A DNA stretch of 64,000 nucleotides from Actinomycetota bacterium (GCA_023379675.1 JAMCPL010000008.1:30720-94719); one strand, 5' to 3'. Shown: positions 24,254 through 63,994, numbered from the stretch's first letter. The notes: generated by a model not told the origin, from the sequence alone. Numbers and translations are program-made.

Positions 24254-27200
24254 TTATTGCGGGTCAAGAGGCATTACTTTTTCTGCTATGAGGCTTGTAA
24301 CACCTTCAGCATGTTCGACGTGGCCCTGTACTATGAGAGCGTCCGTGGATAGCGCCACATGCTGCCATCGAACCCAAGCTCCAGGTGAAAAGACGACATT
24401 CACCATTCCTGTTTCGTCCTCCAAGTTCATGAATACAGTGCCTCCGGCGGTTGGTGGCCGCTGCCTGTGGGTCACCGTGCCGGCCACTTTTATCCTGCCA
24501 TCCATGCATCCGGCCTTGGCAAGAGTTGAAGCCAGCACGATCCCTACGGAATCGAGCGTGGATCTTGCGAGGCTGATTGCCGTAGGACCTGTAGTAAGGC
24601 CGGACGCATACACCTCCGCGTTTGTCACTTCAAGAAGGGTCATGGGAGGAAGATTGGGAGCGTCGCAATCCATCTCTACGTTAGCAATACGTGCCTGCCT
24701 GCCCAGAGAACCGGCAACAGCGTTCCTGACGCTAGCGCGCGCAACCAGGCCGGCAGACCACGCAGTTGCCCTACGCCTAGTTGCTTCCTCTGGCACGCCA
24801 GACATACCAGACATACCAGGGTTACATGATTCGCCTGATGCATATGGCGTATTCTTGTCCTGCTCGTACCTCCGGTTGCTGACCGCCAAACCATCAAGAG
24901 CTCCGGCGCCGGCAAGTAACTCCATGTGCGTTGCACTCAGTTCCGCCCTCTCTACGAGGCCTTCCATAGACCTATATGGTCTCATTGACGCGATGCGCCT
25001 GGCTGTTTCCACTCCGAGAGACCGTATACCAGCAAGACCCAGCCGTACCGCCAGGTTCACCGTCCTCTTGCCCGCTTCTGGGCCAACCTGGCAATCTACC
25101 CGGCTGCCTGCCTGCAAACATGACTGCCTGCCACCAGGCTGAGTACCTGCCCGGATACCTAACTGGACATCCGCCTGTTTACTTCCTAGCTCTGGCCTTG
25201 CTTGCCGGCTGTCCTTCTCTCTACTTTCGCGGCAAGGCCCCAGAGAGGCCAATTCAGACGAATGGCACACATGCGGACCAAGCACCTCCACGCCGTGGCG
25301 TTGGGCGTCGAGCACGATACTTTGTGGAGACCAGAACCCCATGGGCTGGGCTCCTAGCAGCGCTGCATAGAAAGCAGCCGGGTAGTGCAGCTTGATCCAT
25401 GCACTCACGTACACCATATAGGCAAAAGAGACAGCATGGCTTTCCGGAAAGCCGAAGTTGGCAAATGCGGCAAGTTTGCCGTACATTTCCTCGGCCTGTT
25501 CTCGGTCAATGCCATTTGCAGCCATTCCGGCGAATATGCGTTCACGTAGCTTCACCATCCTTTCAGAAGAGCGCTTGGAACCCATTGCCTGGCGGAGTGC
25601 GTCGGCCTCCGTCGCGGTGAACCCGGCTACATCCATCACCATGGTCATGAGCTGTTCCTGGAACAAGGGAACACCCAAAGTTCTGGCAAGGGATCGTTCA
25701 GCCAGCGGGTGAGGCGCCTGCGTACTTTCCTTTCCCTGGCGACGCCTGAGATAGGGATGTACGGTACCTCCTTGTATAGGACCGGGTCTGATTAGGGCTA
25801 TCTCTACGACAAGATCGTAAAAGGATCGCGGCTGCATACGAGGTAACGTGGCCATCTGAGCACGGCTTTCCACCTGGAATACACCGACTGTGTCTGCCTT
25901 GCAGAGCATGTCGTACACTTTCTCATCTTGGGGGAGTGCACCTATATCCAGGTCTACACCGTATGTATCGTGTATGAGATCGACTGCCATGTGGATGGCT
26001 TGGAGTATGCCTAGTCCGAGCAGGTCAATCTTGATAAGTCCCATAGCTGCGCATCCGTCTTTGTCCCATTGCAGCACGGTCCTGCCCGGTCGCCGGGCAT
26101 GCTCTACGGGGCATACCTCGGATATAGGCCTGTTGCATACCACGATCCCTCCTGGATGAAGACCAAGATGCCTGGGTACACCGATCATCTCAGACATGAG
26201 GTCGGCATGGCAGTCTACATTGCCAGGCACGGACAGGTCGTGACCGGATACGGGCAGGCGGTCACCGTTACTCGATGCAGGCATACCGCGGCTGGATGAA
26301 GTGCGGCTATTCGCCACCAGAGGACCACCTAACGCTTTGCCCAGATCCCGTAATGCAGACCTGTACCGGTAGGTGATGACACTGGAAACTTGAGCAACGT
26401 GTTCGATGCCATAGCGATTGTAGACGTACTCGATCACTTCGTCACGGCGTTGGGGCTCTATGTCCACATCTATGTCGGGTGGCTCTTCGCGAGCCGGCGA
26501 GAGGAACCTTTCGAACAAGAGACCCAGAGAAACCGGATCGGCTTGAGTAATGCCAAGCGAGTAACACACTGCGGAATTGGCCGCAGAACCGCGACCCTGG
26601 CAGTATATGCCATTTTCCCTGCAAAACTTCACAATATCCCATACCACCAGGAAGTAGCCTGCATACCCAAGGCTGAGTATCACTTCCATCTCATGGTCTA
26701 TCTGTTTCCAAGCCCTTCCGGCGGATGATACATTTCGTCCTCCGTAACGGTAGGCTGCCCCAGCTTCCACCAGATGCGCAAGCCATGATTGCTGGGAATG
26801 TCCGCGAGGTACTGCGAAACTTGGAATCTGCGGTGCCAGCGGATGCAACTCCAGTGTACACTCGCCTGCTATACAAGCTGCCCGTTCCACTGCCCCGGGC
26901 CAGCGCGCGAAGCGCCTATACTGTTCCGCCGCGCTACGCAAGGATGCAGTGGCATTCGGGCTGATGTACCGTTGAGCCTCTTCGAGGGTATGGCCTTCCC
27001 TGACCGCCGCAAGTATCGAAGCCAAGCGGTACGAGGAAGCACGGGCATAGTGAACGATGTTCGTAGCTACCAGCTGTACATTCTTCTTGATGGCAATTGC
27101 AGCAAGCGCATCATTGCGGGCAGTATCCAGCGGGGTGCCATGGTTCCATATCTCGATCGCAACGTTGTCCCGGCCGCACATACCGATCAGCTTGTCGAGT

Positions 27201-27703
27201 TCCCGAGCTGCCGCTGAAGGCCCTGCATCCAACAGTGCACTGCACAGGGGTCCCTTACTGCAACCGGTAAGAACCATCCAATGACTGGTGTCCATACCAG
27301 CGATGTCATAATCATGCAGCAGGAAGCTGCCTTTGGCGCCTCCTGCCAGATTGGCATGCGATAGTGTTCTCGAGAGCAATGAGTAACCCTCCATATCTTT
27401 TGCCAGTACGACCAGATGCCTGCTTGCAGGGTGCCCCCTATTATTCTCGTACTTCTCCTGGATACTGTGCGGTGCAGTCCACGTAACCTTAATCTCTGAT
27501 CCGAAGATGGATGGCAACCCATGAGATCGAGCCGCTTCGCTGAAACTGGCTACTCCATAAAGGCCATTATGGTCAGTGAGAGCCAGCCCGGCAAGTCCAA
27601 GCCGATCGGCCTCTTCCACTAGCTCCTCTGGGCTGGATGCGCCATCCAGAAAGCTGAAATACGAATGGCAGTGCAATTCGGCATAGCGCCGTATATCAGT
27701 CAT
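24254..27703 (-). CDS. dnaE2: error-prone DNA polymerase III alpha-like subunit DnaE2 (ImuC)
   Basis: PHP domain start YAELHCHSYFSFLDGAS. 1149 aa. The gene sits last in an imuA'-imuB-dnaE2 arrangement, with an 8-nt overlap with imuB. Confidence 0.9.
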   Translation of the reverse strand: MTDIRRYAELHCHSYFSFLDGASSPEELVEEADRLGLAGLALTDHNGLYGVASFSEAARSHGLPSIFGSEIKVTWTAPHSIQEKYENNRGHPASRHLVVLAKDMEGYSLLSRTLSHANLAGGAKGSFLLHDYDIAGMDTSHWMVLTGCSKGPLCSALLDAGPSAAARELDKLIGMCGRDNVAIEIWNHGTPLDTARNDALAAIAIKKNVQLVATNIVHYARASSYRLASILAAVREGHTLEEAQRYISPNATASLRSAAEQYRRFARWPGAVERAACIAGECTLELHPLAPQIPSFAVPRGHSQQSWLAHLVEAGAAYRYGGRNVSSAGRAWKQIDHEMEVILSLGYAGYFLVVWDIVKFCRENGIYCQGRGSAANSAVCYSLGITQADPVSLGLLFERFLSPAREEPPDIDVDIEPQRRDEVIEYVYNRYGIEHVAQVSSVITYRYRSALRDLGKALGGPLVANSRTSSSRGMPASSNGDRLPVSGHDLSVPGNVDCHADLMSEMIGVPRHLGLHPGGIVVCNRPISEVCPVEHARRPGRTVLQWDKDGCAAMGLIKIDLLGLGILQAIHMAVDLIHDTYGVDLDIGALPQDEKVYDMLCKADTVGVFQVESRAQMATLPRMQPRSFYDLVVEIALIRPGPIQGGTVHPYLRRRQGKESTQAPHPLAERSLARTLGVPLFQEQLMTMVMDVAGFTATEADALRQAMGSKRSSERMVKLRERIFAGMAANGIDREQAEEMYGKLAAFANFGFPESHAVSFAYMVYVSAWIKLHYPAAFYAALLGAQPMGFWSPQSIVLDAQRHGVEVLGPHVCHSSELASLGPCRESREKDSRQARPELGSKQADVQLGIRAGTQPGGRQSCLQAGSRVDCQVGPEAGKRTVNLAVRLGLAGIRSLGVETARRIASMRPYRSMEGLVERAELSATHMELLAGAGALDGLAVSNRRYEQDKNTPYASGESCNPGMSGMSGVPEEATRRRATAWSAGLVARASVRNAVAGSLGRQARIANVEMDCDAPNLPPMTLLEVTNAEVYASGLTTGPTAISLARSTLDSVGIVLASTLAKAGCMDGRIKVAGTVTHRQRPPTAGGTVFMNLEDETGMVNVVFSPGAWVRWQHVALSTDALIVQGHVEHAEGVTSLIAEKVMPLDPQ

Positions 27704-29234
27704 AGGTGGCCTCCATATACCAATAGCCCCCTTCCTCCAGGAGCAAATACCCGATCCCGGATACCGTCACCACCTGTATGCGCGCTTGACGCAACGCACT
27801 ATAAGCGTTCTGGGTGCGCGTACTCTGTATGCCCTGCATACCATACTTACCCTGCGAGCGATGCCCTGCACTCTTGGCTGCATGGTTGCCTGTGCTATGG
27901 GTCGAGCAAGCGCCTGTGCTATGACATCGGTGAGATCCGTATGCATTCCGCTCCCACCACCGACCCTCGAAAACCCATGGTCCTGCCCATGACGATATCC
28001 AGACCTGTGCGTTACGTCCGATTACGAGTAGATATGGCTCTCCGCTTACCTCGCCATTTGAATACACTCGCACCCTTTCCCCTTTCCGGTCACGTACTGC
28101 AACTGGTGTGGGGTTCCTGTACAAGACAACGGGAGATGGACCAGGAAGATACCCTGACCATACCTCAGGCATATCCATGGAAGATGGTGGGCCGGCATTT
28201 GCTGCGCAATCCAGCCAGACCTCGGGTTTGCCAATGAAGCCTATGCCAGACCTGCCTTGCCCATTGACATACCCAGCCGGTGGCGCTACATGCGAGGTGT
28301 CCAACTGAAGATTTTTTTTGCCGGCATCTACGGCGTTCTCTGTTTTGCCTAAACTGATTTGGCCTGGCTCGTGCCAGCCCGGCACATGACTGGACATCTC
28401 TTTCGGGGTCCACGCAATCTGTTCTGCACGTTCAGCAGGATAACGACCTCCATGCAGCTTCCCCATGCTGACTGATCCGTATCCCATTGATCGATATACA
28501 TCGTATATGGCTATACAGGCTTGCCCATCCTGCTGGCTGGGTGGCTCGCTCCAGCGGTTGGGTATTCCATGCCGTTTGCTGGCAACTCCATCCGGTCGAC
28601 TGGCGATTCCAGGATCATGCTCTTTTGCACTAAACGGCTCTTTGCCATCCTGCAGGCATACGGCCAACCACTTCATGATGGAGTCGTATATAGTAGGCGT
28701 AAGCTTACCTTGTTTGCCAGTGGCTATTTGTCGGCAATAAAGTATATTCCTCCCGAAACGATTCAGCACGTCTTTTTCGGGAAGCCTGGCCAGATCTCCA
28801 AAGGTGTCTATCCCTAGAATATCTGGATGCAGTGCACATCCTGTCAGAATATGCACTGGCAATGGCGCCAGGAAGTCAGGGGTCTCTCCTTGCGGTACCA
28901 CAATGGTACCGTTGCCTACTGCCATGCAGGCAGCCAGAAGAGCAGCAACCATACCATCTGCCACGCCTGCGGTGGTTCCCACCCCATTATCCCTGGTTGC
29001 ATCTTCAACAGCTTGCTTGGCAGCCGCTGCGAATGACTCTTCCCCGCCAAAATAGCGTGGCTCTCGCCATATCGTTGAACTATATATTCCTATATTGACT
29101 TCTCGGAAAGAGGGGCCAACTGCAGCTAGAGCATTGCATACCTGCATGGGTGCAAGAGACCGGTAATCGAGATCACCGGCGTACAGCAACGCAGGGGTGA
29201 TTATCACCAAGGTACGTTCCATGCCAATTTCCAT
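27696..29234 (-). CDS. imuB: ImuB-like Y-family polymerase homolog (mutasome adaptor)
   Basis: RYFGGEESFAAAAKQ...GVADGMVAALLAA...FLAPLPVHIL...FGDLARLPEKDVLNRFG fits the ImuB pattern. The position between imuA' and dnaE2 agrees. Confidence 0.75.
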   Translation of the reverse strand: MEIGMERTLVIITPALLYAGDLDYRSLAPMQVCNALAAVGPSFREVNIGIYSSTIWREPRYFGGEESFAAAAKQAVEDATRDNGVGTTAGVADGMVAALLAACMAVGNGTIVVPQGETPDFLAPLPVHILTGCALHPDILGIDTFGDLARLPEKDVLNRFGRNILYCRQIATGKQGKLTPTIYDSIMKWLAVCLQDGKEPFSAKEHDPGIASRPDGVASKRHGIPNRWSEPPSQQDGQACIAIYDVYRSMGYGSVSMGKLHGGRYPAERAEQIAWTPKEMSSHVPGWHEPGQISLGKTENAVDAGKKNLQLDTSHVAPPAGYVNGQGRSGIGFIGKPEVWLDCAANAGPPSSMDMPEVWSGYLPGPSPVVLYRNPTPVAVRDRKGERVRVYSNGEVSGEPYLLVIGRNAQVWISSWAGPWVFEGRWWERNAYGSHRCHSTGACSTHSTGNHAAKSAGHRSQGKYGMQGIQSTRTQNAYSALRQARIQVVTVSGIGYLLLEEGGYWYMEATYD

Positions 29235-29316
29235 GTCTTTACTCTAGTCTAAATGGCGAACATATGTTTGCCATGCATGCTCGCGTCCAGTCCCTTTGCA
29301 ACGCCGTTCAGCGACC

Positions 29317-29372
29317 GGTAGGTAGGTAGGTAGGTAGGTAGGTAGGTAGGTAGGTAGGTAGGTAGGTAGGTA
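29317..29372. repeat. (GGTA)14 tetranucleotide microsatellite in the imuA'-imuB intergenic region
   Basis: Counted directly: 14 perfect units, 56 bp. Confidence 0.98.
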
Positions 29373-29468
29373 GGATGGCCGTTACTCAAGTCCCATGATG
29401 AAGCCCCTTGCGAATACCCGGCCAGTCCTGCTCCAGTAGGAATCGCCGCCGCACCTCCGCTGCCCCGA

Positions 29469-30221
29469 TCACCCTGCCGTAGCCACCTTGCCGTCTGACC
29501 CTGGAAGGTACAGTGTTCGCCTTGCCGGGTGTGCTGCGGCACCCCTACCGGTCGACTCGACCAGAGCTACGCGACTATGCAAACGGCCGAATCCTCCAGA
29601 TGGCCCCAACCACTTCGAGGAGACCACTTCCATGATTACGCTTGCACCTATGCTCCGAGCGGCCTGCCCCTGTAGGGACGTGCCCATGCCTGAAACCAGT
29701 ACAATACATATAGAATTGTATTTTCTGGCAATTGCAGCCAAGCGCTGTATGGTATGTATGTATCGCTGCAGGTAGGTATCCTGCAGGCTCAGATTCAACA
29801 GTACTATGTCGATTCCCTTCAGTAGGGTGGCTATAGCCTGCCAGAACTCTGCCGAAGGAAATGGCGATGCAGGCGCCGGCGGAGAGGTTGGTGGAGATAC
29901 CATCACCATACGATTTAGATCGACACCAAGCTCGCAGGTGGCCAGTAACCCCAGGTCGGTGAGTCCGGCAACCGCGCACCACGCGCCTTGGCTCGAAGCA
30001 GCCGCCAGCAGTGAAATAGCCAGGGTACAGGCACCATTGCCAACAATACTGCTCAGTACTTCTATGAGGGTACCTTTCTGCATGCCTCCGTATGGGAAGA
30101 ACGGGGCCAGCGCATCTATCACCGGCAGCACTGAATGATTGTCGTAACAAGAGCCTTTAATGAAGAAAGGGCTCGGTACTGAACCGCCGGCTATTCCTGT
30201 ACTATTTACATTAGCGAACAT
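29469..30221 (-). CDS. imuA': ImuA'-like RecA-fold/SulA-like mutasome protein
   Basis: GACTLAISLLAAASSQGAWCAVAGLTDLGLLATCELGVDLNRMVMV resembles ImuA'. It is the first gene of the cassette. The ORF track extends to 30314, but an SOS box lies inside that extension, so I place the start at ATG 30221. Confidence 0.6.
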   Translation of the reverse strand: MFANVNSTGIAGGSVPSPFFIKGSCYDNHSVLPVIDALAPFFPYGGMQKGTLIEVLSSIVGNGACTLAISLLAAASSQGAWCAVAGLTDLGLLATCELGVDLNRMVMVSPPTSPPAPASPFPSAEFWQAIATLLKGIDIVLLNLSLQDTYLQRYIHTIQRLAAIARKYNSICIVLVSGMGTSLQGQAARSIGASVIMEVVSSKWLGPSGGFGRLHSRVALVESTGRGAAAHPARRTLYLPGSDGKVATAG

Positions 30222-30227
30222 CTGTTC
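30215..30227. promoter_or_regulatory. LexA (SOS) box CGAACATCTGTTC upstream of / at the start of imuA'
   Basis: Palindromic CGAAC-N4-GTTC. On the gene strand it is immediately preceded by TATTATAT (-10-like). The same motif class occurs at recA. Confidence 0.7.
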
Positions 30228-30382
30228 TATATAATAGCATGACTGCACCCCTTGTGGCCTTTTTGTATCTTGGTCACTTTGGTATATCTTGTACATGGCG
30301 TAGCGGTAGGCCACAGAACGGGGAGGAGCCGGTAGGGTGGTGGCTGGCGATCTGGCCGTACCTGTAACGTACTGATTGCCCT

Positions 30383-54200: not shown

Positions 54201-55193
54201 CTACGCAATCCTGAACGCAGCACGGGTATTGTCCGCGGTGATCCGCCGTATCTCGTCCTCGCCGATTCCCAACAACCTGCCGATGCAATTGCCGACCAGT
54301 GTAACCCATCCCGGACGGTTGGGCTTACCCCTGTGTGGAACAGGGCTCAGGAATGGAGCATCCGTCTCCACAAGTAGGCGTTCAAGCGGGCACCGCCTGG
54401 CCGCTTCCCGTACCTCTTCTGCATTGCCAAAAGTCACTATACCGCTAAACGATATATATGCCCCAAGGGCAACCGCTCGATCAAGCTCACCAGGACCTCC
54501 CGTAAAACAGTGCATGATGGTCCTCGCGGGTGCCCCCTCTGATTCCAGTATTTCGAATACATCATCCCAGGCATCTCGCGCATGGATCACCAGCGTAAGG
54601 TCGTGGGAATTGGCCAGACCGATCTGGTCGGCAAAGGCCCTTTTCTGCAAGTCTTTCGAGGGAGCGTCGTAGTGATAGTCAAGACCGCACTCACCAATAC
54701 CTACAAGCATCCCTGGATGCATCCTGGCCGACCCGGTAACCAGCTTTTCCATATCCGGCTCGATATCCGCCCAAGTCTCAGCATCGTGGGGATGTACTCC
54801 AGCGGTATACCACAGGCCGAATCCATCCAGGCTGCCATGACCGCCTGAATCCTCCGCATGAAGGCGCTCGTAAACTGCCATGTTCCTTGCCTCACCGCTC
54901 GTATCACCACCAGAGGCAGTGTTGGAACTCGTTGCGCATCGGCCAGCCGCCTCTGTCTCGAGCCATTTTTCCTTCGATTCAGGAAAGTAAGCTTCCCTCA
55001 TCCGGGTACGTAGGTAAGTCACCAGATCCCGGGCCGACACGGAACTTTCCAGATCCGTACCCACGCAAACCAGTCCCACAACTCCGTTCGACCTGGCATC
55101 CACCACAGCATCAATGGGGTCTTTCCACTGATCACCATACTCGCCTTGAATATGGCAATGGCTGTCTATCCATCCAAGCTGGAACGCCTTCAC
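54201..55193 (-). CDS. tatD: TatD-family metal-dependent hydrolase/DNase with a ~58-aa low-complexity insert
   Basis: WIDSHCH, GIGECGLDYHY, VIHARDA, FSGIVTF, LVETDAPFL. The insert lies at about 54824-54998. Confidence 0.85.
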   Translation of the reverse strand: MKAFQLGWIDSHCHIQGEYGDQWKDPIDAVVDARSNGVVGLVCVGTDLESSVSARDLVTYLRTRMREAYFPESKEKWLETEAAGRCATSSNTASGGDTSGEARNMAVYERLHAEDSGGHGSLDGFGLWYTAGVHPHDAETWADIEPDMEKLVTGSARMHPGMLVGIGECGLDYHYDAPSKDLQKRAFADQIGLANSHDLTLVIHARDAWDDVFEILESEGAPARTIMHCFTGGPGELDRAVALGAYISFSGIVTFGNAEEVREAARRCPLERLLVETDAPFLSPVPHRGKPNRPGWVTLVGNCIGRLLGIGEDEIRRITADNTRAAFRIA

Positions 55194-55307
55194 GCTTCAA
55201 GTGTACCTGAACCTCGCAAAGCTGGCATCACTCCTGCAGCTTGCTGTAGAACCTCACGAATAGCTCGCTCATCCTCGGCCGTCGGGCACTGAGACGCCAA
55301 TTTTGCA

Positions 55308-55718
55308 CTATGTAGATCGGTCTTGCGGGCTGATCACGGCAAATCCAGCATTGATGGCTGCCGTAACGAGCCTATTGTCGTAGGCAATGAGCGCATCCAG
55401 CTCATTCTCGAGAATACGCATGGTAGCCAAGTGGATAGCATCCAAGGATCGCAGCATACGGTCCGGTTCGTTCATGGCGATGCTGACAATATCCTCGTCT
55501 ATACCGATGTAATCAAATGCACGTAAGAGATCCCGTGCCTCAGGAATTGCTGCCGGCAGAGCACATGTAACTGCTCGCATCACCTCAATGCGCAATAATG
55601 CAGAGCTTACCCATGAGCTGCTGGCACTGCTGTCGTAGAATGCGGCTAATGCATTTGAATGAGCTTCTTCGACAAGCAGCTTGAGAACAGCCGACGTGTC
55701 CACATAGTACATGCTCAC
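55308..55718 (-). CDS. vapC: type II toxin VapC (PIN-domain ribonuclease)
   Basis: YYVDTSAVLKLLVEE (first acidic residue), and a later DAIHLATM. 4-nt overlap (GTGA) with the upstream antitoxin gene. Confidence 0.8.
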   Translation of the reverse strand: MSMYYVDTSAVLKLLVEEAHSNALAAFYDSSASSSWVSSALLRIEVMRAVTCALPAAIPEARDLLRAFDYIGIDEDIVSIAMNEPDRMLRSLDAIHLATMRILENELDALIAYDNRLVTAAINAGFAVISPQDRST

Positions 55719-56023
55719 CAGACTTCCTCATCACGCAGCAGTGCCAGCGTCTCACTGAGCTGGTCACCGTGATCACTGCGTGGCCGCATCTTCGGGCGGT
55801 ATCCTGGTCTAGTTGCCGGCTGAGCTTTACCGGACTTGATCAACTGTGCCATGACCTGCGTGGGCACCTGTGTTTGCACCGGAATAATCCTCGCTATCGG
55901 ACGGCCATATTCTGTTATATCAACAATTTCTCCCCGCCGGACGCGAGCCATTACCCTACTGGTATCATGACGAAGCTCTCGAAGTCCCACAGCATGGGAC
56001 TCGTGATCATTGACCATTGCCAT
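55715..56023 (-). CDS. type II antitoxin (Phd/YefM-like) paired with VapC
   Basis: VGLRELRHDTSRVMARVRRGEIVDITEYGRPIARIIP is a Phd/YefM-type N-terminus. Translationally coupled to vapC. Confidence 0.75.
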   Translation of the reverse strand: MAMVNDHESHAVGLRELRHDTSRVMARVRRGEIVDITEYGRPIARIIPVQTQVPTQVMAQLIKSGKAQPATRPGYRPKMRPRSDHGDQLSETLALLRDEEVW

Positions 56024-56100
56024 ATAAATAAGTGTATCACATTTTTGTGGCTACATATCTTCTCTAGCGAGGTCAGGCAACACCAAGTGAAACAGGCACT

Positions 56101-56264
56101 CGCAATATGACATTATGATCATACCTGCCGCCACGTCCCGGTGGTTCTCCTGCAGGATCGTCACGATGCCAGGAATTCAAGGCAAGCTCCCTGGACCACC
56201 CCGCAAGCACCAGCGAATCGTCCAGATCCCCCATCCGAGGATCTGTTATACCTGCATGATCGAA
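56101..56264 (-). pseudogene. orphan fragment duplicating the last ~55 codons (minus the final tail) of the metallophosphoesterase gene at 62312-63994
   Basis: 164 bp aligns without gaps to 62340-62503, with 12 mismatches by my count. The frame is preserved ([55 protein letters not shown]), but a stop codon lies just upstream. Confidence 0.75.
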
Positions 56265-56266
56265 GG

Positions 56267-56297
56267 ACGTTCAGGTACGCGCTGGCAGTGGCGCCCG
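56267..56297. repeat. left copy of the perfect 31-bp direct repeat ACGTTCAGGTACGCGCTGGCAGTGGCGCCCG
   Basis: Identical to 58302-58332. Together the two copies bracket the ATPase/DUF4276 cassette. Confidence 0.97.
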
Positions 56298-56416
56298 CAC
56301 TCATACACCTGCATCGTCCTGCCACAAGCCAATTGACCCCGACAAATAGGGCGACATTCTTGGGAATATCTTGTTTCCAAGCCCGACCCAGCCGGTTTTA
56401 CCTGTGGTATTCTAGT

Positions 56417-57673
56417 ATGATGTATCTTGAGCAGCCCAGCAACATAAATGGGCCAGGGCGAGGAGAATCATTCCCGGTACCGCCTCGCATTGAGAGCTTA
56501 CGAGTCCAGAACTATCGCGTTCTCCGTAATCTTGAACTGAAGCAACTGTCTCCCCTGTCGGTACTCCTCGGTCCTAACGGAAGCGGCAAGTCGACCGTCT
56601 TCGATGTGTTCGCCTTTCTTTCAGAGTGTTTTACGGTAGGTTTGCGAAGGGCATGGGATCGACGCAACCGTTTCAAAGAACTGCGCAGCCGGGGAGCAGA
56701 AGGGCCAATTGTAATTGAACTGAAGTACCGGGAACAGCCTGATCTTCCTCTTATCACCTATCACCTAGCTATTGACGAGACCAGGCGAGGACCGGTCGTA
56801 GCTGAAGAATGGCTGCGTTGGACTCGCGGCCGGCAAGGCCGTCCCTTCAAGTTTCTGGAATTCAACAATGGAGAGGGGCATGTCATCTCCGGCGAGCTTC
56901 CCGAGGTCAACGATGAACGCATTGACTCCACTTTGGAGTCGCCGGACCTCCTGGCGGTCAATACGTTGGGGCAATTCAAGGACCATCCCCGTGCCAGCGC
57001 TTTACGGCGTTTCATAAGCGGGTGGTACCTTTCATACCTTAGCGCCGACAGTACAAGAGGCGTTCCGGAATCGGGACCACAGGAACGACTTTCTCAGGCT
57101 GGTGACAACCTGCCAAATGTCATCCAGTATCTGAAAGAGCAATATCCAGCGCACTTGGAACATATACTACAAGTTCTTGCCGAGCGGATTCCCCGGCTCG
57201 AAAGTGTGAATGCTGGACTTCTTGCAGACGGACGCTTACTGCTCCGGATCAAGGATGCCCCATTCAGCGAACCCATTTTGGCAAAGTTTGCTTCAGATGG
57301 CACATTGAAGATGCTTGCATATCTTATAGTGCTCTACGATCCCGATCCACCACCATTGGTCGGCATCGAAGAGCCTGAGAACCAGCTGCATCCACGCCTA
57401 TTGCAAGCGCTGGCGGAAGAATGTCGGCAGGCGGCATCAAGAAGCCAGCTGCTTGTCACCACCCACTCTCCGTTCTTTGTCGATGGGCTGCATGCAGAAG
57501 AACTGTGGGTGCTATATCGTACTAATGATGGATTTGCCAAGATCATGAGGGTCAGCAAAATGGATAGTGTCAGGGCATTCGTGAACGAAGGTGCAAAACT
57601 GGGAGACCTTTGGATGGAAGGTTTTTTCGAGGTAGGTGACCCATTAGCCACCAGCAGCCAATCAAGAAACTAA
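56417..57673 (+). CDS. ABC-type (AAA_15/AAA_21-like, OLD/AriA/GajA-class) ATPase
   Basis: [17 protein letters not shown], Walker [10 protein letters not shown], Walker B/D-loop [20 protein letters not shown] moved the start to ATG 56417, because the ORF-track N-terminus (56141) runs through the direct repeat and the pseudogene fragment. Confidence 0.85.
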
Positions 57674-57679
57674 TTACCA

Positions 57680-58300
57680 GTGCATCTTGAAGTGCTGGTC
57701 GAAGAGGCTTCGGCCGAAAAGGCGCTTAGCGTCCTCCTGCCCAAGATAGTAGGACCTGATGTCGATTTCACCATTCACGTGTTCCAGGGCAAGCGTGACC
57801 TGCTCGACAAGCTTGCCTCTCGATTGAAGGGTTACTCGCATTGGATCCAGGGGACTCACACAAAGATAGCCGTACTGGTCGATGAAGACCGGCAGAATTG
57901 CCTTGCACTCAAGGAAAAGTTGGAAAAAGCGGCAGCCGAGGCGGGACTCAGTACGAAAACTGCTGTGGGGAATGGAAACCCTTTTTTGGTCCTCAACCGT
58001 ATAGCCGTAGAGGAACTGGAGGCATGGTTTATCGGTGATTGCGATGCCCTTAGGGCTGCGTATCCTCGGATTTCCCCTTCTCTCGAAAATACCAGCCGCT
58101 TTCGTGATCCAGATGCGGTCAGAGGTGGCACATGGGAACAGCTTGATCGGGTTCTGCAACAAGCCGGTTACCATGCTGGTGGAATGGCCAAGACCCGAGC
58201 TGCCGAAGAAATAGCTGTCCATATGGATCCGTACTGCAACCGGTCGCGCAGTTTCAAGCAATTCTGTACAGGATTGCAAGCACTGGTGCAATCGATATAG
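57680..58300 (+). CDS. DUF4276-like protein, probable Toprim-fold partner of the upstream ATPase
   Basis: GTG start 6 nt after the ATPase stop. N-terminal beta-strand with acidic pair LEVLVEEASAE, then AVLVDEDRQ (DxD-like) and VEELEAWF. This is compatible with DUF4276/Toprim as I recall them. Confidence 0.6.
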   Translation: MHLEVLVEEASAEKALSVLLPKIVGPDVDFTIHVFQGKRDLLDKLASRLKGYSHWIQGTHTKIAVLVDEDRQNCLALKEKLEKAAAEAGLSTKTAVGNGNPFLVLNRIAVEELEAWFIGDCDALRAAYPRISPSLENTSRFRDPDAVRGGTWEQLDRVLQQAGYHAGGMAKTRAAEEIAVHMDPYCNRSRSFKQFCTGLQALVQSI

Positions 58301-58301
58301 C

Positions 58302-58332
58302 ACGTTCAGGTACGCGCTGGCAGTGGCGCCCG
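58302..58332. repeat. right copy of the perfect 31-bp direct repeat
   Basis: Identical to 56267-56297. Confidence 0.97.
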
Positions 58333-58348
58333 TCCGGCAGCCACGCTG

Positions 58349-60010
58349 TCAGGGCACTGACGGGATGGCTGAAGATGGAGGCGCCCAAGGCGCCGTCGAT
58401 CCACCGTTCCCAAAACACTCCAATTGCCTACCGGCTGGAAGTCCAGACACCAAGTCATAGTACGAATAAAATGCTCCATGATTACATGCTACGAATGCGC
58501 CCTGTTCAGCGGTAATAGGTCCCCTTGCGTCATTGCTCCAATAGAGCACCTGAAAATTGGATGGAGTGGTGTAATGGCCTGGACCGAACGACCACCCACC
58601 CATACCAGCATCCTGCACCGACGGAGGAAGCGACCACATCCCCTTCTGGAACGTAGCCGGAGTAAGGTCCGGACCGGCTTGCTGCAGCGCGCTGAACAGC
58701 AACAATATTCCCTGGTATACCGTTCCGGCGTCTCCAATCGCAGGAGGACTGGACAGCTCATGACCGGTGGCCAACTTGTATGCAACGGTAAACTCTTGGT
58801 CTCGCGCAGGCGTAGGCTGAACCATCGTTGTCAGGGCATGCGCCCACTCGGCCTTGTCCTGCGGGGATGACATGATTCCCCGGATCATCGTCTCATCACT
58901 GACCGACATGGCAAGCCACTCGGGATAGTAGTGCTGTGCCGCAGCTGCATCCGCCAGGAAGGAAGGAGTTAGGGGATCACACGCACATACCACCGTAGTA
59001 ACTCTCTTGCTACGGAAGTTTGCCATTGCAGCAGTAGCCTCCTGCATCACGCTACCAAAGTTGGCCATCGAATAGACGAATGTAGCGGCTACCGGCACGT
59101 GCGCTGCTTGTAGCCCGCCGGTCAAGTCCGCTGCACATGCCCTGATGACTGGAGCATTGGGATATACAAGGCCTATCCTGGCAGGCGCATCGTGTATGCC
59201 CTTTCCGGCGGCATATATAGCCGGCAATCCATTGAAAGCACTCTTGACCACATCTATTGTACTTTGGGCAAATTTGCTACAGCTTTCATAGTAAGAATAC
59301 TCATAGGGTGCATTCTGCTGGTACCAAGAATGTGGCATGAACTCACCGCCTATGGCAATTACGTGGTGTTGCGCCAGAGCGGTATCGTATGGAGGCGTAG
59401 AGGATACCTCCGATATATCGGCAAAAGCGCCAAGAGATGCTGCGGTCTGGGCATCCGCCTCTGCCTGAGATTGGTCCTGTCCCAGTAATTCGTTGACATA
59501 ACAGCCTTGCCCGTTGAAATATTTTACAACCACTTTCCGGCCCCATAGCTCAAAATCTTTGTTGAACAGGCCGACATAAGCATTTATATTGTGCTCGAAC
59601 ACCGCAGTCGATGCAATTGATTTGCTCCCCGACTTTGCCAGAAATGTGCAAAGCCCCCCATTATTGGCAATATCCACAGTCACTGTAATGCTTCTGCCGG
59701 TTACTCCAGAGGATGTGGCGCCACTGTTGTTGCCGGTCCATCTCGGCACGCAGTATGGAGCATACTCCGACCATGGAACTTGTCTTTTACCGCGGGTACA
59801 CATATATCCACCTACCGTCGTGCCCGCCAGCCCTTCTCCTGGGGGTCTGTAGAGAACGAATCCGCTGTTGCCCTTGGACACTACGGGGTCTTGTGCATTC
59901 ACGCTGTGCACGGAAGGAACGAACAGTAATACCAAGATGATCACAGCCATCCCAAGAACAAACCTCTTATATCGATTTACAATGACTTGGAACTTTTCCA
60001 ATTGCATCAT
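58349..60010 (-). CDS. secreted ABC-type substrate-binding protein (paralog of 9808-11400), with no adjacent permease or ATPase
   Basis: Signal peptide ending VNA|QD. Long collinear similarity to the Liv-like SBP at 9808-11400. I moved the start to ATG 60010, which overlaps the upstream stop as ATGA. Confidence 0.8.
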   Translation of the reverse strand: MMQLEKFQVIVNRYKRFVLGMAVIILVLLFVPSVHSVNAQDPVVSKGNSGFVLYRPPGEGLAGTTVGGYMCTRGKRQVPWSEYAPYCVPRWTGNNSGATSSGVTGRSITVTVDIANNGGLCTFLAKSGSKSIASTAVFEHNINAYVGLFNKDFELWGRKVVVKYFNGQGCYVNELLGQDQSQAEADAQTAASLGAFADISEVSSTPPYDTALAQHHVIAIGGEFMPHSWYQQNAPYEYSYYESCSKFAQSTIDVVKSAFNGLPAIYAAGKGIHDAPARIGLVYPNAPVIRACAADLTGGLQAAHVPVAATFVYSMANFGSVMQEATAAMANFRSKRVTTVVCACDPLTPSFLADAAAAQHYYPEWLAMSVSDETMIRGIMSSPQDKAEWAHALTTMVQPTPARDQEFTVAYKLATGHELSSPPAIGDAGTVYQGILLLFSALQQAGPDLTPATFQKGMWSLPPSVQDAGMGGWSFGPGHYTTPSNFQVLYWSNDARGPITAEQGAFVACNHGAFYSYYDLVSGLPAGRQLECFGNGGSTAPWAPPSSAIPSVP

Positions 60011-60309
60011 CCGTCCACTACCTCGGGAATGTCTGAGGATGTCTCCGGCATGCCATAGCTCCATCCGCTTATGGAGTCCCATCCGCTTATGTCCTGTCTC
60101 GCCTCTGCTTCGGCTGCGTCATAGAGTTCTCCGATTACGGACTCCATACGACCGATCTGCGACTCTATGAAAGCTGCAGCAAGAAAGCTGCCGACATTGA
60201 TTCCCCTCAGGGCAAGCACCGCCTTTTCAGCACCTTCCAAAATGGCCGATGCCGCAAAGTCAATCTCAATCAAACCACCTTCTCTGTTTGTAACACACGG
60301 AACCGTCAT
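60007..60309 (-). CDS. hypothetical 100-aa acidic protein, translationally coupled to the SBP gene
   Basis: ATGA stop/start overlap with the downstream gene. I recognise no family. Confidence 0.5.
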   Translation of the reverse strand: MTVPCVTNREGGLIEIDFAASAILEGAEKAVLALRGINVGSFLAAAFIESQIGRMESVIGELYDAAEAEARQDISGWDSISGWSYGMPETSSDIPEVVDG

Positions 60310-60473
60310 GTTTCGCTGTACCTCCTTCTATAATTACCTTTCTTGTCCTATGTCATTGAAGCTAACAGGGCAAGGTTAAGCATTCGGAACGAGAACAAGG
60401 CACCAAGATGAACTGATGGGAATATTTCAGTGAATTGCAGGAATGGTATTCAGCGGGAATATCGTTTGCGGCT

Positions 60474-60620
60474 AGTGGTCCGTCCCGCAAATAACGTGAT
60501 GGTATCCGGTGCGCAACCATCCAGTGGATGGTTGCGGAGAGGAAGGACATAAGCACGTTAACCCGCCAGAGGCGTCATCTGGTTGGCGGGAGCGCGCTGT
60601 TGTTTGCGGGACGGACCACT
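60474..60620. other. 147-bp structured intergenic element: 18-bp perfect inverted repeats enclosing two hairpins
   Basis: AGTGGTCCGTCCCGCAAA (60474-60491) pairs with TTTGCGGGACGGACCACT (60603-60620). An inner hairpin is CGCAACCATCC-AGT-GGATGGTTGCG (60512-60536). A second, imperfect hairpin lies at 60562-60590. A competing local pairing is TTTGCGG (60465-60471) with CCGCAAA (60485-60491). Confidence 0.6.
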
Positions 60621-60659
60621 AGGCGCGCCGGTTGCTCAATGGAATCTACGAACCATTAG

Positions 60660-61535
60660 TCAGCCGTGGACAGGGGATGCCAGCAGGCCGGTGGCATATA
60701 CCATACCGAAGACCAGTGTGATCATCCCGATTAGCAACGTAACTGCCGAAGCCCTCAAACGGGCGGCAAAGCCCAGGACGGTACCTATCATGAAAAAGCT
60801 ACATACGCCAGCAGTTACCAGCATCACAATTACCGGAACAGTGCCGACGGAGCGCACGGCCGCCAATCCTGCATGCCCGACAAGAAAAGGAGTCACCCCT
60901 ACAGCGAGGAGCGCCACCACGTCTAGAAAGAACGAAAGTCTCAACGCGTCACGAGGGCTCAGCCCGCGAAACAGCATGGGTGTCACTGTCACGGCACTAC
61001 GGCTGATGCCCGGCAGAGCTGCCAGTCCCTGGCACGCTCCGACAATGACAGTAGTCACGAACCCCGGAACCTTTCCCGGTATGGACTCATCCGCAGCCTC
61101 TTGCGTAGCTTTGCGAGCGACACGCTCCCGCGATGCGTTGACAACCGTACTTACCAGAAGGAGCAACCCCACTGCTATCATAAATATGTTGCCGGCCGAA
61201 GCATGAAACACCGAGATTACTCCGGCATACACAGGCAAGCCGATTACTGCCGTCATGACGGTAGCTATAACCAGAAACCGTAATCGGGCCGCGTCGATAC
61301 CAGTACCGAATGGATCACGTAATCCCTTCGTTGCTGACCACACGTCAACACGAAAGTACCATAGCGCAGCAAAAAACGAACCAAAATTAGCCAGAAGGCC
61401 CATCACATACGCCGTATTAGGAGAGTACCCCCCGCCAGTTACATACACCAGGCTGACCATGGTCTTGGAACTCACCGGCAACCACTCTGCGACACCTTGT
61501 AGCAAACCGGCCAGCCCGGCGATCAGCAGGTGCAT
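60660..61535 (-). CDS. uppP: undecaprenyl-diphosphate phosphatase (BacA/UppP)
   Basis: LLQGVAEWLPVSSKTMVSL N-terminal signature, PGISRSAVT motif, polytopic membrane protein. The start is ATG 61535 (MHLLIAG); the ORF-track start is 61634. Confidence 0.85.
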   Translation of the reverse strand: MHLLIAGLAGLLQGVAEWLPVSSKTMVSLVYVTGGGYSPNTAYVMGLLANFGSFFAALWYFRVDVWSATKGLRDPFGTGIDAARLRFLVIATVMTAVIGLPVYAGVISVFHASAGNIFMIAVGLLLLVSTVVNASRERVARKATQEAADESIPGKVPGFVTTVIVGACQGLAALPGISRSAVTVTPMLFRGLSPRDALRLSFFLDVVALLAVGVTPFLVGHAGLAAVRSVGTVPVIVMLVTAGVCSFFMIGTVLGFAARLRASAVTLLIGMITLVFGMVYATGLLASPVHG

Positions 61536-61581
61536 AACACCCAGACTGTTCTCACATATGGTCTCGCATATTGAACCACCA

Positions 61582-62049
61582 TCATGCGTCTCCTGTCCCC
61601 GACTGGTTATCGTGCCTGCTGGTAAGACCCTCACGCCAAGTCAAGTAACCTGCCTGCAGTAGGACATATCCAAATCCCACTGCCCATATGCCGCCAAAAA
61701 TCCCCCATAACGTAAGCAGCCCATGTCGTGACAAAGCTCCAGCTATCACCAGCACGACCCCGCCAACCAGGAGCAACAAACCAGACATGATCTGTATGCA
61801 TGTATAAGATCTTCGTGGCGCTTTTTGAACCGGTGGCACGCCCGAACCTGGATAGCGAGGCCCCGAGCCCTTGCCCAAGTCACTACCGCCGGCACGAGAA
61901 GGCCAGCGCTGCATTTGCCAAGGCAATGTGCCCGTAAACTGAGGCGGACCCCATTTAGCCTTTCCGGACATATCTTGAATATTCACAGAAGGCAGGCCAC
62001 CCGTATTCATTCCACCGCCTCGAGCCACTTCGCTATTCATGGCTCCCAT
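61582..62049 (-). CDS. hypothetical membrane protein (G/P-rich N-terminus, two C-terminal TM helices)
   Basis: ORF with plausible TM hairpin LLLLVGGVVLVIAGAL / LWGIFGGIWAVGFGYVLL. I recognise no family. Confidence 0.45.
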   Translation of the reverse strand: MGAMNSEVARGGGMNTGGLPSVNIQDMSGKAKWGPPQFTGTLPWQMQRWPSRAGGSDLGKGSGPRYPGSGVPPVQKAPRRSYTCIQIMSGLLLLVGGVVLVIAGALSRHGLLTLWGIFGGIWAVGFGYVLLQAGYLTWREGLTSRHDNQSGTGDA

Positions 62050-62169
62050 TATCCAGGCGTGAGGTGAACAGCAGGTAAACGCTGCAGGACGCTTGAATGA
62101 ACACTCGGTGAATACGCGCGAAGCCTGCCGATGCGGCTGTCTTTGAACCTACTCGCTATGCAGAACCCT

Positions 62170-62208
62170 GCCGGATGCACAATCATGCCGGATGCACAAT
62201 CATGCCGG
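62170..62208. repeat. 17-bp tandem repeat (GCCGGATGCACAATCAT) x2.3 in the intergenic region
   Basis: Read directly. Confidence 0.9.
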
Positions 62209-62311
62209 CTCCAGGCAACCACGTATGCTCGCTTCCATCATCTGCCCACCTATCATCATGGCCAGGGAATGCGTTCTGTACACTATCCAGTAACGATAGG
62301 CTTAGAGGCTC

Positions 62312-63994
62312 TTAGCTAAAGGCAAACGGAGCGGGAATCCGCAATATGACATTACGATCATATCTACCGCCACGTCCCGGCGGTTCTCCTGCAGGATCGT
62401 CACGATGCCACGAGTTCAAGGCAAGCTCCCTGGACCACCCCGCAAGCACCAGCGGATCGTCCAGATCCTCCGTCCGAGGATCCGTCATGCCTGCATGATC
62501 GAACACCGTGGAGTAGATGACCAGTTCGCCTGAACCTCTATCTATGGCAAGCTCGATAACCCGTCCCTGTTGCGGCCAATCGATCAGGGATGCGGTAGTG
62601 ATCTGCCAGATCCGGCACCCTGGATATTCCGGCGCCGCCTTCCAAGCACTGCGGGTTTTCCCGTTGCCATAGTCCGGCCCGGCACTGCTGAGCAAGGTTA
62701 TCTTATGGCGATGGGTATGGCCGTTCACCCACAGGATGACATTGGGAAAACGCCCGAGCAGCCCATCCAGATCACCGGCAAGTATCCTGCTGGAAGCTAA
62801 TGGAGAGTAACTATTCACGAGCGTCTCCAGCGGATGGTGACTGAACATAACAAACAGACGGTCCTCACGGCCACTAGTTGCCCATCTTCCATCTCCATCC
62901 AGCCAACGACTGTGCCCGTTCAACAGCTCTCCTTCGATCCAGGAAAGCTGTTCGGCATCGAGTGATCCCTGCCACCCACCCGACGGGTTCACTGTATCGA
63001 GCACAAGACACCGGACCGGGCCTGCATCAAAACTATAGTAGGAATGCCCTTTTTCAGGCGCTGGTGGCTGTATCATGCCGTTCGATACCCCGCCGGAATG
63101 GCCGTCGCCATGGCCGGCACTTTTGTAACCAGCATTTTCATGGCCATGGCCGGAATCCTGGCCGTAGCTTTCACCATCAATTGCAGTAATGCCATGCCGA
63201 AGTGCAACAAGCCACTGCTTCTGATCAACGAGCCGGCGATCCGGATCGGCAGTAACCTGTTCCCAGGGACCGCCGGACAACGCAGCTACGATATCAGGAG
63301 GTACGACACTGTGATTGGCGAGCAGGCTTCCCATGTCAGCCCCCTCCACCCATCCAGTGGCTTTCCTGTCACCCACCGCCACCCTTCTTAATATGCCAGT
63401 GTGCGGTATGGTCCCTGCAATCATGTAATCATGATTCCCTGGCACGTCATACCAGGGAATACCGAGTCCCGTAGAAGTAAACTCCCTGCGGCACGAATCA
63501 AGCAGTCCTGGCACATCCGGATACCCGAAGCGTTCATGGGCAATGTCCGAACCAGCTGAGGGTGACCCATGGCCGGCAAGCGGACCATCAGGATGCCAGT
63601 AGTACCAATCGTAGAAAGCCGTACTGCCTACTCCTTCGTAACTACTGCGATCACCCGAATCAGGTCTAATCGTCTTTCCCCCGTTCATCAGGTCGAGATA
63701 CCACTTGATCTCGTTGTACTGGGAGTTATCGGCTGCGTCACCCGTAATCATCGCAAAAGAAACAGGGCATCCAGTTACCGGCCCGTAATGCAAATTACGT
63801 ACCGCCACGGCCGTTGCCTCCACCACTTGCATGCTCAGCATGTCCTGAGGCCGGTAAGTACCGATATTGCCTAGTACAGGAAAAAACGCCGAATCAATGT
63901 TGCCGAGCCTGTCAAGGAACTCCGCCCTTGCAGGACTCTGTGCATCGGTAACGTGCAGATCAGTCAGGTGTACAAACGCCAGTAACGGCTCCAC
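62312..63994 (-). CDS. metallophosphoesterase (calcineurin-like; actinobacterial TIGR03767-like family); the N-terminus may extend beyond the window
   Basis: FVHLTDLHVTD (motif I), ITGDAADN (motif II), PGNHD (motif III), VMFSHHP, NGHTHRH. There is a G/H/S-rich insert (GQDSGHGHENAGYKSAGHGDGHSGG). Confidence 0.8.
   Translation of the reverse strand: MEPLLAFVHLTDLHVTDAQSPARAEFLDRLGNIDSAFFPVLGNIGTYRPQDMLSMQVVEATAVAVRNLHYGPVTGCPVSFAMITGDAADNSQYNEIKWYLDLMNGGKTIRPDSGDRSSYEGVGSTAFYDWYYWHPDGPLAGHGSPSAGSDIAHERFGYPDVPGLLDSCRREFTSTGLGIPWYDVPGNHDYMIAGTIPHTGILRRVAVGDRKATGWVEGADMGSLLANHSVVPPDIVAALSGGPWEQVTADPDRRLVDQKQWLVALRHGITAIDGESYGQDSGHGHENAGYKSAGHGDGHSGGVSNGMIQPPAPEKGHSYYSFDAGPVRCLVLDTVNPSGGWQGSLDAEQLSWIEGELLNGHSRWLDGDGRWATSGREDRLFVMFSHHPLETLVNSYSPLASSRILAGDLDGLLGRFPNVILWVNGHTHRHKITLLSSAGPDYGNGKTRSAWKAAPEYPGCRIWQITTASLIDWPQQGRVIELAIDRGSGELVIYSTVFDHAGMTDPRTEDLDDPLVLAGWSRELALNSWHRDDPAGEPPGRGGRYDRNVILRIPAPFAFS

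Follow-up and report, generated by a model that had tools for sequence, protein, structure and literature searches.

The DNA considered here is a stretch of 64,000 nucleotides from an Actinomycetota bacterium (GCA_023379675.1 JAMCPL010000008.1:30720-94719), referred to in its whole length as the window. Near its end lies a metallophosphoesterase (MPE) gene whose 3' end is present a second time about 6.2 kb downstream, beside a vapBC toxin-antitoxin pair. One copy is resident in the gene and the distant one is an orphaned remnant. A preliminary description of the window had compared the two copies with the attL and attR sites of an integrative element. With slightly better than even confidence, we lean towards an old insertion scar formed by displacement of the 3' end of the gene, with an origin independent of any recombinase favoured.

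The repeated gene end and its neighbours

Followed in the coding direction of MPE, the locus comprises in turn MPE, a DUF308-like gene, uppP, an open reading frame (ORF) of 100 aa, a gene for a substrate-binding protein (SBP), a 34-nt repeat, a DUF4276 gene, an ATPase gene, a second 34-nt repeat, the remnant, vapB, vapC and tatD. The DUF4276/ATPase pair, which matches the HEC-01 models of PADLOC, is on the opposite strand from the rest. The MPE gene (62312-63994, minus strand, its 5' end lying off the window) belongs to the TIGR03767 family (NCBIfam 332 bits, cutoff 330.75; Pfam Metallophos). In public records the full protein has 627 aa, and the gene tables of L002 and L018 show its gene as the last of an ATP-binding cassette (ABC) transporter operon.

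The core of the repeat is a gap-free alignment of 56101-56264 with 62340-62503 (offset 6239), in which 152 of 164 nt are identical (12 mismatches, 92.7 %), exactly as had been counted in the preliminary description. The longest exact run between the copies is 40 nt (56176-56215). The repeat is not a product of chance, since the 164 nt matched the orthologue in the related genome L001 with a BLAST E value of 1e-63. The resident copy spans the MPE codons from FDHAG to NVILR. Beyond the core each copy continues for 9 further in-frame codons to stops that are equidistant (56073-56075 and 62312-62314), with 16 of 30 positions identical in this part (RVPVSLGVA* in the remnant, RIPAPFAFS* in the resident). 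Because reading frame and stop position agree, the left copy (56073-56264, minus strand) represents the complete 192-nt 3' end of the MPE gene, and it is identical at 166 of 192 positions to the functional 3'-terminal 192 nt (62312-62503, minus strand). The homology had been said to begin and end abruptly. This holds for the 5' side, where the boundary is sharp and the first remnant codon is preceded, at a distance of 3 codons, by an in-frame TGA, but on the 3' side a weaker homology runs on to the in-frame stop.

The left copy had also been called a stranded remnant that keeps its frame behind a stop, and the TGA and the state of its C-terminal motif agree with this. The motif DRNVxLx[IV]PAPF was present in every homologue examined and is kept by the resident copy, while in the remnant it is degraded (DRN to DHN, PAPF to PVSL), for which reason we regard the remnant as a decaying copy. 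In the protein search, the only match to the 63-aa remnant peptide was the remnant ORF itself (P0001, 100 %), which GenBank metagenome-assembled genomes (MAGs) list as a 53-aa hypothetical protein. Judged by its sequence, it is a pseudogene fragment derived from the 3' end of an MPE gene.

It is barely credible that the remnant is instead the relic of a full-length MPE paralog, or that the arrangement is a chimera of MAG assembly. A TIGR03767 paralog (P0033) does occur in the same MAG series, and short-read contigs stop inside the repeat, beside the 40-nt exact run. However, this only paralog seen is 45 % identical, against 92.7 % between remnant and resident, and upstream of the remnant the HEC-01 cassette begins with no more MPE-like sequence. 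Decay of a second full-length paralog, which the preliminary description had held out as an alternative, was accordingly rejected. A chimera was rejected as well, since independent NCBI, ENA and Logan assemblies share the arrangement and its junctions (L016, 100 % over 17.9 kb; the ENA contig L017, 99.07 %; L007, which spans the junctions).

Four genes on the minus strand lie between the resident copy and the HEC-01 cassette. The first encodes a small membrane protein that is weakly DUF308-like by Pfam (61582-62049), and the second is uppP/bacA for undecaprenyl-diphosphate phosphatase (60660-61634; Pfam BacA E 1e-33, and NCBIfam). The 100-aa ORF (60007-60309) has no family match and shares 4 nt with the start of the SBP gene; the sister species described below has kept it (dN/dS, the ratio of nonsynonymous to synonymous divergence, 0.39). 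The orphan SBP is of the Peripla_BP_6 family (58349-60010; 553 aa in public records, the longest ORF reaching 60082).

The HEC-01 cassette itself is on the plus strand. Its left 34-nt direct repeat (56264-56297, with a 31-nt exact part from 56267) is followed by an ABC/AAA_21 ATPase gene of HEC-01A type (56417-57673; PADLOC E 7e-167; Pfam AAA_21 and AAA_15) and the HEC-01B gene (57680-58300; PADLOC E 5e-86; Pfam DUF4276 E 6e-29), and its right 34-nt repeat (58299-58332) overlaps the DUF4276 stop codon by 2 nt. A 31-bp repeat of this cassette had been reported to lie near the remnant; the adjacency stands, but the repeat is 34 nt long and directly abuts the remnant from 56264. Both genes match their PADLOC models over the full length and lie 6 nt apart on one strand. 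DUF4276 has been classed as Toprim-like (PMC12065111). In published assays HEC-01 conferred no protection (bioRxiv 10.1101/2024.01.29.577857), and we treat the pair as no more than a candidate defence system.

A distant ATPase/DUF4276 pair was found in the Meiothermus taiwanensis plasmid pMtWR-220 (L035 3947-5844), enclosed by the S- and R-subunit genes of a type I restriction-modification operon and adjoining DUF4433 and macro-domain genes. This fits the idea of embedded defence genes behind the HEC names; embedded defence candidates are described in bioRxiv 10.1101/2024.01.29.577857. At our locus the same kind of gene pair has no such operon around it; its neighbours are a transporter gene on one side and a gene remnant on the other, and 34-nt direct repeats flank it.

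On the other side of the remnant, after a 49-nt spacer, follow vapB, encoding a Phd/YefM-type antitoxin (55715-56023, minus strand; TIGR01552 E 1.5e-7), and vapC, encoding a PIN-domain toxin (55308-55718, minus strand; Pfam PIN E 1e-10), which overlap by 4 nt. With a PIN toxin gene overlapping a preceding small antitoxin gene and a putative promoter or operator upstream (56024-56065, minus strand), the pair has the layout of a VapBC type II toxin-antitoxin module. The downstream neighbour of vapBC is tatD (54201-55193, minus strand).

Some other features of the window were observed. Between uppP and the operon of the 100-aa ORF and SBP, the minus strand at 60468-60626 is strongly structured, with a 28-bp outer stem enclosing 2-3 hairpins and an RNA minimum free energy of -90.8 kcal/mol (z = -9.3 versus shuffles); its arms are kept in the sister species while the interior is swapped, and it has no Rfam match. 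Directly downstream of the MPE gene, 108 bp (62133-62240) with three tandem 17-bp units (62158-62208) are missing in the sister species. Promoter, terminator and Rfam scans of the locus all remained at background. Farther away, two permease domains (BPD_transp_2) and two ABC ATPase domains are joined in a single ORF of 1357 aa (11501-15574, minus strand), which would by its domains be a whole branched-chain-type importer lacking only a binding protein; that the Peripla_BP_6 protein at 58349-60010 is its partner is a guess. At 24254-30314 (minus strand) a DnaE2-type polymerase gene (1149 aa) is followed by ORFs of 512 and 281 aa without Pfam match, a set resembling the actinobacterial imuA'-imuB-dnaE2 mutagenesis cassette, of which we presume the two smaller ORFs to be the other members.

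The locus in a sister species and an outgroup

The sole relative in the species-representative genome collection was the MAG L001, with an MPE about 92 % identical, representing a sister species (S) of the window species (W). L001 can be aligned colinearly with the window between 63997 and 56272, and the alignment resumes at 55217, just upstream of tatD. In S, 79 bp stand in place of the 1054 bp at 55218-56271, which by this break in blastn colinearity comprise the remnant, both vap genes and the 90 nt that follow vapC. More than 20 S contigs from many MAGs and samples (including L001, L011 and L018-L029) have, wherever they are long enough, the order metG-ABC-MPE-DUF308-uppP-orf100-SBP-HEC01-tatD, without remnant and vapBC, and the six contigs checked share a single identical junction. 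The MPE protein cluster at 90 % identity holds seven sequences; one of them led to 21 contigs and three more to one contig each. These contigs are without exception of the S or the W type, and in none is the MPE gene directly followed by vapB.

The S junction upstream of tatD (L018 17803-17913; L001 17608-17713) contains a 73-bp tandem duplication, an exact 33-nt unit around a 40-nt filler. The duplication forms a hairpin with a 9-bp stem and a 14-nt loop (GTGTACCTG...CAGGTACAC), at which Logan contigs break, and the 40-bp filler showed no homology to the vapBC segment. The segment missing from S is bracketed by a 13-nt imperfect inverted repeat, to which no weight is given, as about 0.4 such pairs are by our estimate expected there by chance.

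Within the 6.2 kb between the two repeat copies, W and S diverge as they do outside it. Per 300 nt, the nucleotide identity amounts to 80-97 % within the 6.2 kb and to 81-96 % on either side, and the synonymous divergence (dS) is 0.10-0.42 inside and 0.11-0.33 outside. The DUF308-like gene is the most diverged (dS 0.42), and the HEC-01 genes have the lowest dS at the locus (0.10), while their non-coding leader is 85.7 % identical. From the flank-like divergence and the identity of the HEC-01 leader it follows that the 6.2 kb, including HEC-01, predates the split of W and S, and by these comparisons it was already present in their common ancestor. The earlier view that the two copies, 7 % diverged, are old was borne out.

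An Acidimicrobiales MAG, GCA_054636795.1, which holds the closest non-self VapC (77 %) and the next-closest MPE (71 %), served as the outgroup (O). Its gene order is rsmI-metG-vapB-vapC-tatD-ksgA-ispE-SDR, with no gene between metG and vapB, and its ABC-MPE operon is found at another locus, followed by purH-folD. The protein identities between W and O are 75.8 % for VapB, 77.4 % for VapC, 73.2 % for TatD, 79.1 % for IspE, 84.3 % for KsgA, 84.0 % for SDR and 71.4 % for MPE. About 40 nt upstream of vapB are conserved between W and O (56024-56065; L014 4033-4069), as is the tatD leader. The block upstream of vapB includes a run of 25/25 identical nt (CCACAAAAATGTGATACACTTATTT) with a CACA-N4-TGTG palindrome, whereas vapBC itself is about 78 % identical; it is probably an operator with a leaderless-type promoter. 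The next VapC in similarity (72 %) is in an unrelated, mobile-looking context. Because W and O are syntenic here, VapBC has diverged like its neighbours and the leaders are conserved, the vapBC-tatD neighbourhood is ancestral and vertically inherited, and the block of about 14 kb between metG and vapB is consequently secondary.

In S, about 100 nt of unrelated sequence after the metG stop are followed by about 145 nt homologous to the promoter region of the ABC operon in O, which argues that the transporter/MPE operon moved as a block. The operon with these 145 nt was found in three contexts in three lineages (L018 5441-5685; L012 5482-5740; L013 54-2290), in L013 next to a resolvase and a DNA methylase.

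Since vapBC is ancestral, the arrangement of S is most economically explained as a 1054-bp deletion, and we infer this polarity, in which S most likely deleted the remnant and vapBC. The opposite polarity, with the S type ancestral and W having regained vapBC, along with the final 192 nt of MPE, from a relative whose MPE gene directly adjoins vapBC, appears improbable. On that view the imported DNA would have recombined homologously within tatD and been joined illegitimately at the TCGAT beside the HEC-01 repeat, and the variable unit would be the 1054 bp at 55218-56271 instead of the 6.2 kb. Some observations agree with such a regain: colinearity with S breaks within 8 nt of the 5' end of the remnant, the TCGAT at the S junction could be used as microhomology, VapBC of this family is found in mobile contexts elsewhere, and the W-S dS of tatD is the second-highest at the locus (0.33, compared to 0.11-0.23 for ksgA, ispE and SDR). 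The last value is not decisive, as it is inside the range of the locus (DUF308 0.42, uppP 0.27). The regain would, however, need an unobserved donor lineage and the loss and subsequent return of vapBC at its exact ancestral position, while the divergence of VapBC from the outgroup equals that of its neighbours and the 73-bp duplication scar at the S junction is compatible with a deletion there.

The three copies of the 164-nt core (remnant, resident and S) are nearly equidistant, with pairwise identities of 92.7 %, 92.1 % and 93.3 %. At 3 sites the remnant agrees with both outgroups, and a derived state is common to the resident and S copies. These data are compatible with an origin of the remnant at or before the W/S split.

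Mobility signals and comparison with known systems

No recombinase, integrase, resolvase or transposase domain was found with Pfam, NCBIfam and PADLOC in any ORF of the segment or in the large ORFs of the window, small intergenic pseudogene traces not being part of the search, and no mobility gene was found within 10 kb upstream of the operon. The preliminary description, which had seen no recombinase, was right in this. It had also pointed to a shift in GC content or codon usage as a possible mark of the 6.2 kb. No clear shift was detected: the GC content is 53.7 % in the segment versus 55.7 %, a difference of about 1 standard deviation (gene-to-gene 2 %), and the z-scores of GC at third codon positions are -1.6 to +1.1. 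Plasmid or phage relatives of the segment were not found, except for one distant match to the ATPase, and across more than 20 contigs of W and S there was no presence/absence polymorphism of the 6.2 kb.

A close known counterpart in geometry is the locus of e14 in Escherichia coli K-12, where, according to PMC13626634 (citing Hill et al. 1989), icd is completed by DNA of the element and a 3' pseudogene, icdC, is left at the far end. As with e14 and phage 21, the inserted DNA at our locus supplies the last codons of the gene, and a diverged 3' fragment stands as a direct repeat at the far end, so that repeats derived from a gene 3' end bracket the segment and the resident copy keeps the gene intact. 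In e14 the defence-type gene mcrA lies beside the far-end fragment, as HEC-01 does here. However, e14 has its own integrase and excisionase, is excised upon SOS induction and is polymorphic among strains, whereas at our locus no recombinase inside the segment, excision, empty site, phage genes, foreign composition or mobile gene content was found, the cargo is housekeeping-like and the segment is fixed in two species.

It is therefore doubtful, but worth weighing, that the locus is a decayed island of the e14/phage 21 type, whose attP carried a replacement MPE end of about 190 nt, whose attL and attR are the 164-bp copies and whose integrase was later lost. We consider it a doubtful variant, too, that the integrase module was perhaps replaced when the HEC-01 cassette landed beside attR. 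The geometry is that of e14 and icd, the repeat begins abruptly within the gene and extends to the stop, a defence-type cassette is at the far end beside the remnant, and a nested repeat-flanked unit abutting the remnant fits accretion at an att site. Against a decayed island stand the scans of the ORFs of segment and window, which revealed no recombinase, excisionase, mobility gene or pseudogene, the housekeeping-like nature of uppP, the SBP and the membrane protein, and the lack of a composition shift and of plasmid or phage relatives. Furthermore, the 6.2 kb are non-polymorphic in more than 20 contigs of two species, and the copies, 7 % diverged, are without sign of recent recombination. 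Of the attL/attR interpretation, the formal resemblance thus stands, but no recombinase, empty site or clear composition shift accompanies it, and an origin independent of recombinases explains the locus no less well.

A second comparison is offered by the cis-mobilizable elements (CIMEs) of Streptococcus, att-flanked accretion relics without a recombinase that lie beside integrative and conjugative elements (ICEs). They share with our locus the direct repeats from a gene 3' end, the lack of recombination genes of their own and a second, nested or adjacent repeat-flanked unit. The att sites of CIMEs are, however, shared with a resident or related ICE whose integrase can act in trans, whereas the repeats here are 7 % diverged, and we know of no CIME-type partner element or integrase for this lineage.

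The repeats of the HEC-01 cassette behave differently from the MPE copies. When the two window copies (56264-56297 and 58299-58332) were compared with those of S (L018 15759-15784 and 17792-17817), the copies within each species were identical over the shared 26 nt, while the species differed at the same three positions in both copies (GCCAGCGCG in W, GCTGGCGTG in S). These repeats of 26-34 nt, 2 kb apart, show by this pattern concerted evolution. As the copies are identical within a species although the cassette seems older than the split, gene conversion or repeated recombination between the copies would have to be assumed.

There is in our opinion a slim chance that both nested recombinase-less, repeat-flanked units, the 6.2 kb and the 2.0-kb HEC-01 unit, are still substrates of a site-specific system acting in trans. 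With the same slim chance, the repeat pattern would result from repeated excision and re-integration or from homogenisation of att sites, and the cassette would be a CIME-like mini defence cassette of Acidimicrobiia that targets gene 3' flanks. This is kept alive by the co-evolving repeats, by their exact abutment on the remnant and by a divergent 28-nt tail of the remnant, discussed below. If true, this would reveal a novel mode of movement for small defence cassettes that lack a recombinase of their own.

Origin of the orphaned end

In the explanation we favour, 3'-end displacement, the ABC-transporter/MPE operon would first have landed between metG and vapBC-tatD, which placed the MPE stop within a few bases of the vapB promoter, on its upstream side. 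We infer a former contact between a complete MPE gene and vapB from the remnant stop, which lies 8 nt from the conserved block upstream of vapB. The preliminary description had anticipated that in some relatives MPE might directly abut vapB; the vapBC-tatD order of the outgroup implies such a former adjacency, but no relative shows the empty site. Before the W/S split, about 6.2 kb would then have been joined into the MPE gene 192 nt ahead of its stop, bringing the DUF308-like gene, uppP, the 100-aa ORF and the SBP gene and, at the same time or later, the HEC-01 cassette. The incoming DNA would also have brought a complete 3' end, so that MPE remained intact and its old end was displaced 6.2 kb downstream to vapB.

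The join would most likely have occurred without a dedicated recombinase, by homology-facilitated illegitimate recombination (HFIR) anchored in the operon or in MPE or, alternatively, by a microhomology-mediated template switch at the TCGAT of the junction. The remnant starts with TTCGAT, and S retains TCGAT(A) directly after the same HEC-01 repeat; with 5-6 nt and the donor sequence unseen, this match could be due to chance. Afterwards the locus would have been frozen, the copies drifting to 7 % divergence, the remnant losing its conserved residues and S deleting the 1054 bp with remnant and vapBC. A recombinase-independent route is favoured because no signal of mobility was obtained and the cargo is housekeeping-like.

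HFIR, and orphaned 3' ends left by displacement of C-termini, have been proposed for Rhs, contact-dependent inhibition (CDI) and type VI secretion system (T6SS) effector loci (PMC5361080, PMC3240628). As at those loci, an orphaned piece of the 3' terminus, oriented like the gene itself, lies here downstream of the intact gene. In the process proposed there, incoming DNA has a homology anchor in the conserved 5' part of the gene, the end is replaced and the old 3' end is orphaned downstream; it needs no recombinase, and the second join is illegitimate at a short microhomology. The Rhs, CDI and T6SS loci differ in that they encode polymorphic toxins with new tips of other function, immunity genes and orphan arrays, while at our locus both ends encode the same conserved tail, there is a single orphan and 6.2 kb of unrelated genes were added.

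A one-step origin, in which break-induced or template-switching replication placed a copy of the whole block of about 14 kb (ABC operon, MPE and the 6.2 kb) between metG and vapB with no MPE-vapB intermediate, has in our judgement a very small probability. So has the accompanying detail, that replication jumped back via TCGAT and passed a second time over the final 192 nt of MPE ahead of the join on the vapB side. The ABC-MPE operon and the 145 nt of its promoter region form a block in three contexts, the remnant is sharply bounded on either side with microhomology at its 5' end, and its stop is merely 8 nt from the conserved vapB block, all of which would suit one step. Two copies made in this way would, however, begin identical, yet the remnant holds outgroup states at 3 sites, which points to different alleles or an older origin.

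Several observations weigh against 3'-end displacement itself. Neither an empty site nor an MPE-vapB adjacency was found in genome contigs, in the 90 % MPE cluster or in metagenomes, where scans with the MPE protein and with the 25-mer of the vapB operator gave no match; the collections searched hold two close lineages and one outgroup. A donor context for the 6.2 kb was not found either, homologues of its genes not being beside MPE in L012 and L013. The phylogenetic signal of the 164 nt is conflicting, with 3-4, 2 and 2 sites for the three topologies when two outgroups are used. The last 28 nt of the remnant, which end in GCCTGA as in the outgroup, are about 50 % diverged compared to 7 % for the core, and uniform neutral decay would not predict this. 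The HEC-01 repeat and the remnant adjoin with single-base precision, a hint of some site-directed process, an integrase acting in trans may exist beyond the 64-kb window, and a microhomology of 5-6 nt is alone weak evidence.

The preliminary description had, as a fallback, considered an old or decayed island or a segmental duplication followed by replacement, and this comes close to what the data allow. We regard the locus as a further case of a familiar type of event, an old fixed scar and not a working mobile island. The duplication of a gene tail can mimic attL and attR, and it is the comparison with a sister species and an outgroup which shows that the bracketed DNA is old and fixed, and that the polymorphic unit is the remnant with the toxin-antitoxin pair. 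Annotators should be aware that the 53-aa hypothetical protein is a pseudogene fragment. The scar also serves as a relative date, placing the insertion before the split of the two species. For this uncultured acidimicrobial lineage the comparison further indicates that the gap between metG and tatD grew by about 14 kb in steps, taking up a transporter operon, genes of the cell envelope and a cassette of defence type.

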